From NCBI GenBank assembly GCA_046716125.1, contig JBKJXJ010000265.1, positions 1 to 44,185 on the forward strand: 44,185 nucleotides of DNA, given 5' to 3'. The position numbers and the translations under genes are program-made. The notes below the pieces were generated by a model. That model saw nothing but the letters and a program-made list of their open reading frames with translations. It was not told the origin of the DNA and made no database searches. This document shows, in pieces, positions 10,277 to 43,455 of this stretch (position 1 is the first letter of the stretch; each line of letters starts with the position of its first letter). The stretch is from Candidatus Eiseniibacteriota bacterium. GTDB lineage: Bacteria > Eisenbacteria > RBG-16-71-46.

Positions 10277-11368
10277 ATGTTCTACGAATGGGTCTACCCG
10301 CTCCACACGCAGGAGGGGCTCGGGGCGCTGAACGTCTTCCGCTACATCACGTTTCGCGCCGCCTACGCGGCGATCACCGCGCTCCTCGTCTGTTTCGTGC
10401 TCGGGCCGCCGATGATCGCATGGCTGCGGCGGGTGGGGCTGGGACAGAAGATCCGCGCGGAGGGCCCGCAGGCTCATCTCGCCAAGGCCGGCACGCCGAC
10501 CATGGGCGGGCTCCTCATCGTCCTGGCGATCGTGGTGCCGACGCTCCTGTGGGGGAACTTCCACTCGCGGCCGCTGTGGATCGCGCTGGGGGCCACGGTG
10601 TGGCTCGGGGCGCTCGGGTTCCTGGACGACTACCTGAGGGTGGTGCGCGGCTATCCCAAGGGTCTGCTGGGCCGCTACAAGCTGGCGGGGCAGATCGTGT
10701 GCGGCATCGCCATCGGAGTGGTGCTGGTGATGTGGCCCGAGAACGGCCTGCCGCCGACGTTCACCCACGTGCCGTTCGTGAAGTTCCGGTTCCTCGACCT
10801 GGGGCTCCTGTTCGTGCCGTTCGTCATCTTCATCATCACCGCGACGTCCAACTCGGTGAACCTGACCGACGGGCTCGACGGGCTCGCCTCGGGGCTGGTC
10901 GCGATCGCGGCGGTCGCCTTCGCCGGCATGTGCTACCTGAGCGGCCACGTGAGATTCAGCGAGTACCTGAACATCAGCCACCTGCGCTACGCGGGCGAGT
11001 TGACGGTGTTCTGCGCCGCGGTGCTCGGGGCTTCGCTCGGATTCCTCTGGTACAACTGCCACCCCGCCGACATGTTCATGGGCGACACCGGCTCGCTGGC
11101 GCTGGGCGGGGCGCTGGGCACCGTCGCGGTGCTCATCAAGCGCGAGTTCTGGCTGGCGCTGGTGGGCGGCGTGTTCGTCGCCGAGGCGCTCTCGGTCATG
11201 ATCCAGGTGGCCTCCTTCAAGATGTCGGGACGGCGGGTGTTCCGGATGTCGCCGCTCCACCATCACTTCGAGCTCTCGGGTTGGGCCGAGTCCCGCGTCG
11301 TGCTGCGGTTCTACATCGTCGGCGCGCTCCTCGCCCTGCTCTCGCTCTCGACCTTCAAGCTGCAATGA
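10277..11368 (+). CDS. mraY: phospho-N-acetylmuramoyl-pentapeptide transferase MraY
   Basis: ATG 10277, 1 nt after the murF stop, with GGTGAGGAG upstream. 'GTPTMGG', 'NSVNLTDGLDGLA', 'PLHHHFE'. Confidence 0.95.
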   Translation: MFYEWVYPLHTQEGLGALNVFRYITFRAAYAAITALLVCFVLGPPMIAWLRRVGLGQKIRAEGPQAHLAKAGTPTMGGLLIVLAIVVPTLLWGNFHSRPLWIALGATVWLGALGFLDDYLRVVRGYPKGLLGRYKLAGQIVCGIAIGVVLVMWPENGLPPTFTHVPFVKFRFLDLGLLFVPFVIFIITATSNSVNLTDGLDGLASGLVAIAAVAFAGMCYLSGHVRFSEYLNISHLRYAGELTVFCAAVLGASLGFLWYNCHPADMFMGDTGSLALGGALGTVAVLIKREFWLALVGGVFVAEALSVMIQVASFKMSGRRVFRMSPLHHHFELSGWAESRVVLRFYIVGALLALLSLSTFKLQ

Positions 11369-23969: not shown

Positions 23970-24023
23970 AAGATGACAGGGCCTCGTACCCGCCCCGGGG
24001 CGGATGGAAGGCCCTGTCATTTC
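23970..24023. repeat. compound palindromic element (ATGACAGGGCC ... GGCCCTGTCAT) just after the recG stop
   Basis: ATGACAGGGCC at 23973-23983 is perfectly complementary to GGCCCTGTCAT at 24010-24020. An inner CCGCC/GGCGG hairpin sits at 23990-24003. The same unit recurs four times at 33751-33881. Confidence 0.6.
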
Positions 24024-33750: not shown

Positions 33751-33881
33751 GAAAATGACAGGGCCTTCTATCCGCCGCACGGCGGATGAGAATGACAGGG
33801 TCTTCTACCCGCGCCAGTGCGGACTCAAGGCCCAGTCATTTTCAACATGCCCCAGGGCATGTGGAAGACCCTGTCATTTTC
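33751..33881. repeat. cluster of four ~18-nt GAAAATGACAGGG(C/T)CTTC units (two forward, two inverted), each followed by a short GC hairpin
   Basis: Forward units lie at 33751-33768 and 33788-33805. Inverted units lie at 33827-33843 and 33863-33881. Unit 2 is the exact reverse complement of unit 4, and unit 1 matches unit 3 except for one base. The cluster sits in the 370-nt convergent gap between the dehydrogenase and the PimA-like gene. Confidence 0.6.
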
Positions 33882-34040
33882 TGCGGGCGCAACCAGCACG
33901 GGCGCCGGTGCCGAAGCCGACTTCGGAAGTGGAGTTCGTTGACAGTAGAGGCTGCCTGACAGGCCGCTGGAGCGGTCCCGCTCAGCCAGGATCAGCGGCA
34001 GCACCCCAGGCGGACAGATTAGAGCGTCAACCGCGACGTC

Positions 34041-36322: not shown

Positions 36323-36742
36323 ATGCCCAGCCAGAAGCTCGTCCGGTGCGAGATCCGGCGCCGCGGCGCCGCCGAGTCGGGATCCCCACGCTACGTGCCC
36401 CTCGAGATCTACGGCCTGTGGGAGTACCTCATGTCCACCAAGCATGACTTCGAGGTGGTGGCCCCGCGCGCGTCGCTGTGGCTCGATATGGAAGACTCCC
36501 CCGACGCGGCCTACAGCGAGAGCCAGTATGAGCGGGTCACCGAGGTGACGGTATTCGTCTACTCGGGCCGCGACGACATGTTCACGCGCGTGTGCCGGTA
36601 CTTCCCGAGCTCCGATTGCGAGATGGTGAAGCGGATCTTCCTCTCGCACTACGCCGGCGAGGAAGGGAAGGTCCGGCCGCAGATCCGGGAGCGCGCGGGG
36701 ATCTGGATCCATCGCGAGACGGCCGAGGTCGCGGCGACGTAA
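36323..36742 (+). CDS. hypothetical protein (139 aa), no recognisable family
   Basis: ATG 36323, 9 nt after AGGAGG. High GC3. Begins 'MPSQKLVRCEIRRRG...'. The track ORF start at 36191 is rejected. Confidence 0.55.
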   Translation: MPSQKLVRCEIRRRGAAESGSPRYVPLEIYGLWEYLMSTKHDFEVVAPRASLWLDMEDSPDAAYSESQYERVTEVTVFVYSGRDDMFTRVCRYFPSSDCEMVKRIFLSHYAGEEGKVRPQIRERAGIWIHRETAEVAAT

Positions 36743-36790: not shown

Positions 36791-36937
36791 GGGCCGCCGG
36801 GACGGCCGAGGTCCTCCGGCGGTACGCTCGGCCCCGCATCCTGCGGGGCCGAGCTCTATCTCGGGCTCGCTCCGCCGGTCCGTGGCTCCCGCGAGCCCTC
36901 GACGCCCGCTTCCGGACCCCGGCCGTCCCGGCGGCCC
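36791..36937. repeat. structured ~147-nt element, copy A (17-bp closing stem plus two internal hairpins); candidate ncRNA or old MITE
   Basis: The closing stem pairs 36791-36807 with 36921-36937 (17/17 bp). Hairpin 1 spans 36826-36854 with a 12-bp stem and loop ATCCT. Hairpin 2 spans 36861-36902 and its loop contains TCCGTGGCTCCC. It is homologous to copy B at 43310-43455, with compensatory stem substitutions. Confidence 0.5.
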
Positions 36938-37381
36938 TTGTGCCGGGTCGAGCGGTGCCCGCTCGAGCGCCACTCGATCGTTCTCATCACCCGCGCCCGG
37001 GCCTCCTGATACCCCGAATCGGGCAATCCCCTAATGGCGGCCGTTTCTACGCCGGTTTCAGTGCCGGCCGGTCGAACCGGGGGCCTGAGCGTGGGTGGGG
37101 ACGAGGCCCCAAAACTCCGGTCAAGGTCGTGCGGGATGCCGCCGACAACCCGCTTGAAAGCTGACGCCCTGGCCATGGCAGGCGCGGTCCGCCCGCAGCA
37201 GCGCAAACGGGACCGCTGGGCGCCGGCTCACGACAGTAAGCGACCCCATTCGATGTCCCGGGATCGATCCGGCAACGGACGCGCCCGAACATCTTCAGGG
37301 TCCCCGTGGAGAAAGGGCGGCAAGGGGCTCCATGGGATCCGGCTCTGCGACAGGGTGGGGTCGCACAGGGAGGGCTAGACC

Positions 37382-38491
37382 GTGGTCGTGGTGAGCTATT
37401 CGGGCAAGGAGATCAACGCCAAGCTGGTCTATTACGGCTGCGGCTTGTGCGGGAAGACCACGAATCTGGAGTCCATCTACGAGGCGGTGCCCGACACCAG
37501 CCGCGGCAAGATGGTGAGCATGAAGACGCAGTCCGATCGGACGCTCTTCTTCGATTTGCTCCCGCTCGACCTGGGCGAGATCATGGGCTTCAAGACCCGC
37601 TTCCTGCTCTACACCGTGCCGGGGCAGGTCTTCTACAACGCCACGCGCAAGCTGGTGCTCAAGGGCGCCGACGCGATCGTGTTCGTGGCCGACAGCGAAG
37701 TCGGCAAGATGGAGGAGAACCGCGAGAGCCTCGACAACCTCCGCACGAACCTGGCCGAGTACAAGATCAACCTCGACGAGATGCCCTGGCTGATCCAGTA
37801 CAACAAGCGTGACCTGCCGAACGTCTACAGCATCGAGGAGCTGCAAGCCGCGCTCAATCCGGGCGGGGCCGTGCCGTACTTCGAGGCGGTGGCGACGCAG
37901 GGCAAGGGAGTGTTCGAGACGTTCCGCGGCATCTCCCACATGCTGATGGAGAAGGTGACGCGCGAGCTGCGCCGTGGTGGCAGCTCGACCTCGCCCATCC
38001 GTCCTGCGGTTCCGACCGAAGCGCAGGTGGCCGCGCGTAACGCGAGCGTCGCCCCGAGCATCGCGCCCACTGTGGCGACCGGCTCGCCGGGCCGCACGAT
38101 CGCGCGCGAGGCCGTCGAATCGCGTCCGCCGGAGCCGGTGAGGGCGCCGGCCGAGACCCTCGACTACGGTCGCGAGATCGAGCTGCCCGATGAGATCCCG
38201 CCGCCGACCCCGCGCGAGACCGTGACGATGTCGGCGGCTCCCAACGGGCGTCAGACCCCGGCCCCGGAGCCGGTCCCTGCGGCCACGCAGCCGGCGGCCG
38301 AGCCTGCCCGTCGCGCGTCCGCTCAGCAGCCGGCGGCGCGCACGGAGCCCGCGGCCGAGCGCCAGCCGCAGCCGGCAACCTTGAAGTCCGAGAAGCCCGA
38401 GGCCGGCACGATGGTGATCCCCGTCAAGCTCCCGCCCAGCGGGAGCACCGGCGAGATCGTCATCCGCATCGTCTTCGAGCGTCAAGACTAG
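37382..38491 (+). CDS. mglA: MglA-family Ras-like GTPase with a ~170-aa Pro/Ala-rich C-terminal extension
   Basis: GTG 37382, 8 nt after GGAGG. 'INAKLVYYGCGLCGKTTNL', 'DRTLFFDLLPL', 'FLLYTVPGQVFY', 'QYNKRDLP'. The G-domain lines up end to end with Myxococcus MglA as I remember it. Residues from ~200 onward are low-complexity, ending 'MVIPVKLPPSGSTGEIVIRIVFERQD'. Confidence 0.9.
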   Translation: MVVVSYSGKEINAKLVYYGCGLCGKTTNLESIYEAVPDTSRGKMVSMKTQSDRTLFFDLLPLDLGEIMGFKTRFLLYTVPGQVFYNATRKLVLKGADAIVFVADSEVGKMEENRESLDNLRTNLAEYKINLDEMPWLIQYNKRDLPNVYSIEELQAALNPGGAVPYFEAVATQGKGVFETFRGISHMLMEKVTRELRRGGSSTSPIRPAVPTEAQVAARNASVAPSIAPTVATGSPGRTIAREAVESRPPEPVRAPAETLDYGREIELPDEIPPPTPRETVTMSAAPNGRQTPAPEPVPAATQPAAEPARRASAQQPAARTEPAAERQPQPATLKSEKPEAGTMVIPVKLPPSGSTGEIVIRIVFERQD

Positions 38492-42742: not shown

Positions 42743-42997
42743 ATGCTGGTCCTAACACGGAAGTTAGGCGAGAACATCCGGATCGGGGATTCGGTCAAGA
42801 TCACCGTCCTCGAGGTCCGTTCCGGCCAGGTGAAGCTGGGCATCGAAGCTCCGCCGGAGGTCAAGGTGCACCGCGAGGAGATCTACGCGCGGATCCAGGA
42901 GGAGAATCGCCGGGCGCAGAACTGGAAGCCGGAGGCGGGGGCGGATGGCCCCCCGACCGGCGAGAAACGCGAGAACGATCGATCCAAACCGCAGTGA
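42743..42997 (+). CDS. csrA: carbon storage regulator CsrA (RNA-binding translational regulator)
   Basis: '[48 protein letters not shown]'. GGAGGGAG RBS. The C-terminal tail is charged. Confidence 0.93.
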
Positions 42998-43079: not shown

Positions 43080-43280
43080 ATGACGCGCAGCACTCAGCGT
43101 GGCACGCGCAGACGCAGGACGAACCGCCTCGATGAATGGCTCGGCATCCGCGAGTCCGACCGCGTGCGTCCCAGTCGAGTGCTCGCGGCGCGGGCCCGGA
43201 TCGCCTCCGGGCACTACGAGCGCCCCGAGGTGAAGGACTTCCTGCTCGAGGCGCTGCTTCAGGCTCTGCGCCGGAAGTAG
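43080..43280 (+). CDS. FlgM-like anti-sigma-28 factor (tentative)
   Basis: The C-terminal 'DRVRPSRVLAARARIASGHYERPEVKDFLLEALLQAL' fits the FlgM C-terminal pattern (RV-x2-hK-x2-I-x2-G-x-Y ... hhxxhL). The start is either ATG 43080 or ATG 42945; the latter would overlap csrA by 53 nt but keeps fairly high GC3. Confidence 0.45.
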   Translation: MTRSTQRGTRRRRTNRLDEWLGIRESDRVRPSRVLAARARIASGHYERPEVKDFLLEALLQALRRK

Positions 43281-43309
43281 CGCGGGCTGAAAACCGTCCG
43301 GAACTGGCG

Positions 43310-43455
43310 CCGTCCGAAAACCCGACGGGACGCCTCCGGGGTACGTTCGCCTCGTCATCCTGACGAGGCGAACTCTATCCGAGGCTCGCTTCTCCATCCG
43401 TGGCTCCCGCGAGCCTCGGACGCCCCCTGCGGCGTCCCGTCGGGTTTTCGGACGG
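43310..43455. repeat. structured ~146-nt element, copy B (25-bp closing stem plus two internal hairpins); candidate ncRNA or old MITE
   Basis: The closing stem pairs 43310-43334 with 43431-43455 (25/25 bp). Hairpin 1 spans 43345-43373 with a 12-bp stem and loop ATCCT. Hairpin 2 spans 43379-43419 with an 11-bp stem, and its loop contains TCCGTGGCTCCC. It sits between the flgM-like stop and the histidine kinase start. Confidence 0.5.

Follow-up and report, generated by a model that had tools for sequence, protein, structure and literature searches.

Small RNAs of the Csr/Rsm type (Rfam clan CL00106), exemplified by CsrB and RsmZ, bind and sequester CsrA dimers through single-stranded GGA motifs. 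In CsrB the repeated site reads CAGGA(U/A/C)G and is displayed in hairpin loops; known CsrA sites have short, weak stems, very stable hairpins being thought unfavourable. RNA antagonists of CsrA have been described for Gammaproteobacteria, whereas the antagonist known from elsewhere is the protein FliW (PMC7652899). Pyrimidine-rich counterparts are found in the CcsR1-4/cuckoo RNAs of Alphaproteobacteria, which are reported to carry the motif CCUCCUCCC and to share a transcript with a small ORF upstream of them (PMC8034643, PMC4615179). At the DNA level, REP/REPIN sequences, which are mobilised by RAYT, and ERIC sequences are intergenic, ~100–150 nt long and found behind genes; they form long hairpins or ‘clover’ structures with compensation between the arms (PMC3116915), and their presence varies among related genomes. 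The element described below resembles each of these systems in some respects and matches no described family.

The window analysed is a complete NCBI contig of 44,185 bp from a Candidatus Eisenbacteria MAG, a soil genome. It contains a homologous, structured, intergenic element of ~145 nt at two places, copy A at 36791–36937 and copy B at 43310–43455, exactly where the initial annotation had put them; no third copy is present in the window. The copies align by BLASTN between 36813–36921 and 43333–43439 (82 of 109 nt identical, 75%, E 5e-17), and the alignment is confined to this core, with none in the flanks. Both fold into a three-way junction composed of a long closing helix, hairpin 1 and hairpin 2, with an extra helix of 4–5 bp (GGGG/CCCC) joining the closing helix to the junction. 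Minimum free energies are -117.4 kcal/mol for copy A and -113.7 kcal/mol for copy B, corresponding to z-scores of -8.5 and -14.2, respectively, against dinucleotide shuffles, and the minus strands fold as stably as the plus strands. The whole window was also compared with Rfam at the gathering threshold, a check suggested at the outset, and no family was matched; the element thus has no Rfam family.

The individual helices, supported by the fold and by covariation, largely agree with what had been described from the sequence. In copy B the closing helix consists of 25 perfect bp (43310–43334 with 43431–43455), as reported, whereas the 17 bp given for copy A have to be replaced by 18 perfect bp, an A.C mismatch and 5 bp (36791–36814 with 36914–36937). 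The arms of the two closing helices, which had been called largely different, are partly homologous, with the core CGGGACGG. Hairpin 1 (36826–36854 in A, 43345–43373 in B) has a 12-bp stem which differs between A and B at five positions, all five compensated, and the same loop ATCCT (36838–36842 and 43357–43361), as had been noticed. Hairpin 2 likewise matches its first description, including the invariant TCCGTGGCTCCC: in A (36863–36898) it has an 8-bp stem and a 20-nt loop (36871–36890), and in B (43382–43416) an 8-bp stem, extended to 11 bp in this copy only, and a 19-nt loop. Two smaller statements did not hold. The C/G substitution in the linker is actually a 1-nt indel, and the weak similarity beyond the 3′ end (GCCGGG...CGCCAC) is missed by BLAST, has a spacing of 20 versus 9 nt and is taken as chance. 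Both copies are indeed intergenic and lie 3′ of a plus-strand gene, with 49 nt (A) and 29 nt (B) between stop codon and element. They are non-coding: third-position G+C reveals no coding frame over A or B, and coding potential was rejected on this basis together with the 1-nt indels between the copies.

The contig carries a cell-division and cell-wall cluster, with mur ligase-like repeats at ~7–16 kb and with FtsA and FtsZ, which were assigned through the syntenic relative L013. Copy A is preceded by genes for a glycosyltransferase and a lipid-A acyltransferase (minus strand) and then by a 139-aa ORF (36323–36742, plus strand) directly upstream, whose product belongs to no Pfam or NCBIfam family. 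Between the two copies lie a ~230-nt leader with a Ras/Arf-like GTPase gene, an ORF of 161–171 aa and trpA, followed by a minus-strand gene for a SpoIIE (PF07228) and PDZ protein, csrA and a 66-aa ORF. The csrA gene (42743–42997, plus strand; 84 aa; Pfam CsrA 4.4e-26) is separated from copy B by 310 nt, and its product has a C-terminal extension of ~30 aa. The 66-aa ORF (43080–43280, plus strand) immediately precedes copy B and comes after csrA in each relative whose contig covers both genes (L013, L028, L031, L033, L035 and L048); it encodes a conserved, arginine-rich protein without a family. Copy B is followed by genes for a PAS-domain histidine kinase and a sigma-54 activator. The names of the acyltransferase, the kinase and the activator come from synteny with relatives (L013 and L032 for the kinase). 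In L013 and L032 the PAS-domain kinase and the sigma-54 activator are also next, and L032 has in addition ParA/MinD-like and sigma-70-family genes. Identification of the 66-aa protein as FlgM was rejected in the absence of a Pfam or NCBIfam match. The 139-aa protein was considered as a FliW-like candidate and rejected: it has no Pfam, NCBIfam or PDB sequence match, and its confident AlphaFold model (pLDDT 86) gave no structural match.

Relatives were reached through homologues of the 139-aa and 66-aa proteins and the contigs encoding them, here given L-numbers. Three further copies, all from close relatives, occupy the same two loci. Copy D (L044:855–999, identical in L045 and L046) and copy C (L026, cut by the contig end) are at locus A, where the 139-aa protein is 97.8% and 92% identical, respectively; copy E (L048:2110–2242, 3′ arm cut) is at locus B, next to a 66-aa protein that is 98.5% identical. 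In relatives at or below 89% identity (L029, L027, L028, L010, L013) the element is absent from locus A, and in those at or below 88% (L032–L036, L013, L028) from locus B. Such a distribution fits a single gain followed by vertical descent. By their distances the copies group as ((A,D),(B,E)), and the four-point condition holds for the distances between stems; on this test, repeated independent insertion at one site was rejected in favour of orthology. As judged from these sequences, there are two paralogous loci with vertical descent within a genus-level clade of Eisenbacteria. A second covariance model, R2, built from all five copies, scores copies A and B at 132 and 159.8 bits and picks up no further locus in 164 kb of Eisenbacteria sequence, which is not the picture of a many-copy repeat raised by the initial annotation; nor does a direct repeat, as would be left by target-site duplication, abut A, B or D.

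Wider searches were equally negative. The exact gapped pattern ATCCT..TCTATC..(T)CCGTGGCTCC(C) gave chance matches only, in genome contigs (katG coding regions) and metagenome contigs, and was too strict, the spacer being TTTAC in copy C and TCCATC in copy E. There was no match in viral contigs (two scans) or, by blastn, in plasmids and phages. A profile of the plus-frame ‘peptides’ found no match in 5.8 billion proteins and the minus-frame translation none in 1.84 billion representative proteins, which suggests, if weakly, a rare family.

The surroundings of both loci are variable. In L042, where the 139-aa protein is 97% identical, an HNH-endonuclease-like gene (10436–10951, minus strand; weak Pfam HNH match, E 0.02) directly follows the 139-aa gene at the site of copy A, after which the contig ends; the spacer behind the 139-aa gene is an insertion hot spot. 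At locus B, short direct repeats of CCGTCCG(A/G)A, whose minus strand is UCGGACGG and contains GGA, lie at 43290–43330, between the stop of the 66-aa ORF and copy B, whose outer arm they make up. Three such repeats are found in the same spacer of L031 (5324–5400; 66-aa protein 98.5% identical), whose contig ends 77 nt past the stop codon and resembles only the outer arm of B. Altogether, six independent metagenome contigs (L026, L031, L043, L046, L047 and L048) have their 3′ ends inside the element or within 80 nt of it, and the last bases of L043 and L047 are garbled runs of G and C. Such ends suggest that assembly failed at, or coverage was poor over, a hairpin of 80% G+C, or else that strains vary strongly here, and they could also reflect a repeat.

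To compare the helices across all copies, we aligned the five sequences with the closing helix set by i + j = 176, together with the short helix and the two hairpins. Pairing is retained in 93.8% of 193 cells, versus 77% in shuffles and 38–50% when the partners are slid, and both sides have changed in 24 of 49 pairs; none of 500 shuffles reaches any of these measures. One pair of the closing helix is A-U, C-G, G-C and U-A across four copies, and between B and E 5 of the 12 pairs of hairpin 1 differ, all compensated. The initial annotation had named homologues with broken helices as evidence against its reading: copies C, D and E keep all helices, while C and D contain a few broken pairs. Its view of a functional RNA or a structure-dependent DNA element is supported, since the element is low-copy, lacks target-site duplications and has three relatives’ copies with all helices, and neither the refuting repeat pattern nor the helix-breaking one was found.

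Rates of change differ between the parts of the element. Any two of the four full-length copies, whether orthologues or paralogues, agree at 75–83% of unpaired columns, whereas identity in paired columns falls to 52% (A versus B). Loops are therefore constrained, and stems need only pair. Over the whole element A and D are 84% identical and B and E 74%, while the spacers touching it are at chance level; for comparison, third codon positions are ~80% identical between the window and L044 or L048, and an ordinary spacer, that from csrA to the 66-aa ORF, is 78% identical. These comparisons indicate that the element is under selection for both structure and loop sequence.

Two other structured sequences lie on the same contig. 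A second palindromic family, at 23973–24022 and 33752–33882, has conserved 12-bp arms, ATGACAGGGCC(T)TC and GAAGGCCCTGTCAT, which are flanked by A/T and enclose a small variable G+C hairpin. In 33752–33882 one unit is nested in another, so that the DNA folds into a four-way junction at -43 kcal/mol (z -8). With its conserved arms and nesting this family looks MITE- or REP-like, unlike the element studied here. The other is the non-coding leader of ~230 nt (~37150–37381) upstream of the Ras/Arf-like GTPase gene (37382–38491). It is also found in L044, L028, L029, L027, L010 and L013, remains alignable where the 139-aa protein is only 74% identical, and has a consensus structure in which conserved G-U pairs are frequent, with GUGGAGAAAGGGCGGCAAGGGGCUCC as an invariant segment. 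It has no Rfam family and may be a new cis-regulatory RNA.

The helices of the element are almost exclusively Watson-Crick. The 193 pair cells comprise 180 Watson-Crick pairs, 12 mismatches and a single G-U (1 of 181 paired cells), and 3 of the 12 mismatches (A.C or C.A) would be G-U if read on the opposite strand. In the GTPase-gene leader of the same genomes, used as a control with the RNAalifold structure, 48 of 321 standard pair cells are G-U (15%); the shortage is significant by Fisher’s test (p 3e-9), the cells not being independent. Many swaps are of the transversion type, GC to CG or AU to CG, and have no wobble intermediate. Thus, the compensation pattern gives RNA no preference over DNA, and it leaves the transcribed strand unindicated. 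It is unusual for selection acting on RNA only and fits complementarity enforced at the DNA level, where an extruded hairpin or cruciform would be subject to mismatch repair or template switching, or else a constraint acting on the two strands alike; the compensation could partly stem from hairpin-templated repair rather than from selection.

On balance we favour a functional RNA, from either strand, whose loops are predicted to be its working part. Our best guess as to its action, a tentative one, is a putative CsrA-binding decoy made from the minus strand, which is preferred because it alone explains the csrA neighbourhood. The minus strand would be transcribed into a small RNA, the closing helix would lock its ends, and its single-stranded GGA motifs would bind and sequester CsrA dimers in the manner of CsrB and RsmZ. 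The predicted sites are the hairpin-1 loop, C-AGGAU-G; the hairpin-2 loop, with GGGAG and CA-N-GGA-N-G; and an internal loop, CCGGAGG. Unpaired GGA occurs 4–6 times per full-length copy on the minus strand and 0–1 times on the plus strand. On the minus strand, the hairpin-1 loop and the pair that closes it together give CAGGAUG in four of the five copies (A, B, C and E); in copy D, where mismatches are present, the loop is ACGAC and its GGA is lost. The hairpin-2 loop, read on the same strand as GGGAGCCACGGACCGGCGGA in copy A and GGGAGCCACGGAUGGAGAA in copy B, has the form GGGAGCCA-N-GGA-N-G. Across four copies it appears as CACGGAC, CACGGAUG, CAGGGAUG and CAGGGAAG, with most of the variation at the two N positions of CANGGANG, the CsrA/RsmE consensus, and with the final G also changed to C in copy A. 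The csrA operon adjoins copy B; for two copies distributed among a few thousand spacers, we estimate the chance of such adjacency roughly at ~1e-3.

The element is close to the Csr/Rsm RNAs in several respects, if the minus strand is the transcribed one: a length of 110–147 nt, 4–6 single-stranded GGA, CAGGAUG and CANGGANG in hairpin loops, two paralogues per genome and a canonical csrA (PMC7652899). There are also differences. The element comes from another phylum, has very long perfect helices, including one that joins the 5′ and 3′ ends, has almost no G-U, and has no promoter or terminator recognisable in consensus scans; its binding of CsrA is predicted. Significant similarity in sequence or to covariance models is absent, and what appears with relaxed Rfam thresholds on the minus strand is far below gathering scores: RsmW for copy B (22.2 bits, E 0.04; gathering score 52) and CsrC for copy E (15.1 bits, E 0.034; gathering score 279). 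These are the best or second-best sub-threshold matches for B and E, whereas A and D have no Csr/Rsm match at relaxed thresholds, and spurious miRNA models score equally on this G+C-rich hairpin. The RsmW and CsrC matches restate the GGA motif and are not independent evidence; what they mainly confirm, in an objective way, is the likeness of hairpin 1 to a Csr hairpin unit. In size and GGA count the element is within the range of RsmY and RsmZ.

Several observations weaken the decoy reading. Stems of 12 and 18–25 perfect G+C-rich bp stand against the short, weak stems of CsrA sites; helices under selection as RNA alone would not usually have as few as one G-U in 181 pairs; Rfam scores are low, with none for A and D, and D lacks the hairpin-1 GGA; and antagonists of the sRNA type have so far been described for Gammaproteobacteria. 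Neither promoter-like nor terminator-like sites were seen in consensus scans of both strands, which also counts against the reading, although the consensus may not be that of this phylum, and the flanks of A, D and B have no common motif. Two candidate promoters were rejected: YGGCAC beside the closing helix of A and D, as a sigma-54 element, has a spacing to GC that is off by two as judged by eye, and an extended -10 (TGcTCTAAT) just upstream of A is not kept in D and is taken as chance. Finally, a GGA-rich minus strand is by necessity a UCC-rich plus strand, and at both loci the element lies co-oriented close behind plus-strand genes.

The last point leads to an RNA of the opposite strand. 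The element could be part of the 3′ UTR of the upstream gene, maybe excised at the closing helix, with its C/U-rich loops pairing with Shine-Dalgarno-like or GGA-rich mRNA targets, or it could merely shield the upstream mRNA from 3′ exonucleases. All five copies have the same orientation after a plus-strand stop, at 29–49 nt in A, B and D and at ~15–45 nt in the truncated E and C, and a position so close behind a co-oriented stop would require no dedicated promoter; this evidence, however, derives from just two independent loci. Unpaired plus-strand positions are 73–79% pyrimidine, and the loops read CCUCC, AUCCU and UGGCUCCC, with CCUCC preceding the junction in four of five copies and UGGCUCCC invariant in the four full copies. 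Small RNAs with C/U-rich loops also include LhrC and RsaE. Compared with the CcsR1-4/cuckoo RNAs (PMC8034643, PMC4615179), the element is alike in its C/U-rich plus-strand hairpin loops, its paralogues and its small co-oriented upstream ORF, and copy E, whose loop is CUCCUCCUUCCC, comes near to their motif CCUCCUCCC. That motif is approximated in copy E only, there is no sequence relationship, the phylum is another one, and a three-way junction with a long closing helix is different from tandem hairpin units. The conserved core of the loops is just UCC among variable positions, which makes a poor pairing seed; behind the closing helix there is neither a U-tract nor anything else resembling a terminator, the shortage of G-U applies here too, and the adjacency of one copy to csrA is left unexplained. 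We consider this plus-strand alternative unlikely, though only slightly less probable than the minus-strand decoy.

Also doubtful in our view, to about the same degree, is that the palindrome is maintained as DNA, either as a relic or rare member of the REP/REPIN/MITE-like elements or as a hairpin or cruciform bound by a protein, its arms being kept by hairpin-templated repair or template switching and any RNA effect being incidental. Watson-Crick-only helices with transversion-type swaps, their length and perfection (12 and 18–25 bp) and the equal folding of both strands would fit such an origin. The hypervariable spacers that take other insertions, such as the HNH gene of L042, the self-nesting second palindromic family on the same contig and the six metagenome contigs ending in or near the element point in the same direction, and REPIN hairpins likewise show frequent compensatory changes and an alternative ‘clover’ fold (PMC3116915). 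However, in place of tens to hundreds of REP copies there are two loci in 164 kb of sequence from this clade, and where REP copies would be near-identical, those within this genome share 75% identity. Conservation is lowest in the arms and highest in the loops, the reverse of what is seen in elements bearing terminal inverted repeats. The two hairpins are unrelated in sequence and loop size and are not inverted copies of one REP, and GTAC precedes hairpin 1 where a REP has the head GT(A/G)G. No RAYT (Y1 transposase) stands out among the probable genes on the 44-kb contig, a minority of which were searched against protein families. A distribution that fits single gain and vertical descent, with no match in plasmids, phages or viral contigs, also speaks against mobility, and nothing at the DNA level readily accounts for the loops being asymmetric in purines and pyrimidines. 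Low copy number, absence of target-site duplications, variable arms and vertical descent together argue against a repeat of the MITE/REP type.

More specific classes were rejected. A MITE is not in keeping with outer arms that are the most variable part and with the lack of direct repeats abutting A, B and D. Integron attC sites have R''/R' core sites at their ends (RYYYAAC...GTTRRRY), extrahelical bases and a cassette context, whereas the ends of the element are GGGCCGCC...GGCGGCCC in A and CCGTCCG...CGGACGG in B; its stems are perfect, and its neighbours are conserved syntenic genes. A retron msr-msd was dismissed because no reverse transcriptase is found among the neighbours (GTPase-like, trpA, SpoIIE PF07228, csrA, PAS kinase), and an intrinsic terminator because there is no terminator-like site at A or B on either strand. 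A factor-independent terminator or insulator acting on the upstream gene, like those without a U-tract that are reported from high-G+C bacteria, would account for the position just past stop codons and for the very stable closing helix, and in L013, which lacks the element, a simple G+C hairpin with TTGTT behind it occupies the corresponding position, but we regard this reading as improbable, as a branched 145-nt structure with conserved loops far exceeds what a terminator needs, a U-tract is absent and relatives do without the element. What probability these readings leave over belongs to explanations that we have not thought of.

The covariation of this element is unusually clean given how few sequences are available, and it illustrates that compensatory changes alone cannot separate selection at the RNA level from maintenance of a palindrome at the DNA level. 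With respect to the minus-strand decoy, it is conceivable, with the balance still tilted against it, that the element would represent the first family of CsrA-sequestering small RNAs outside Proteobacteria, a pair of decoys, one of them encoded next to csrA, on a scaffold of another kind, a three-way junction locked by a long terminal helix; their helices would be kept strictly Watson-Crick, perhaps by hairpin-templated DNA repair. If true, RNA antagonists of CsrA would have arisen independently of the gammaproteobacterial Csr/Rsm RNAs, and an RNA with GGA loops adjoining csrA, in a soil phylum that is uncultivated, would offer a directly testable example of RNA-based CsrA control that was invented independently.
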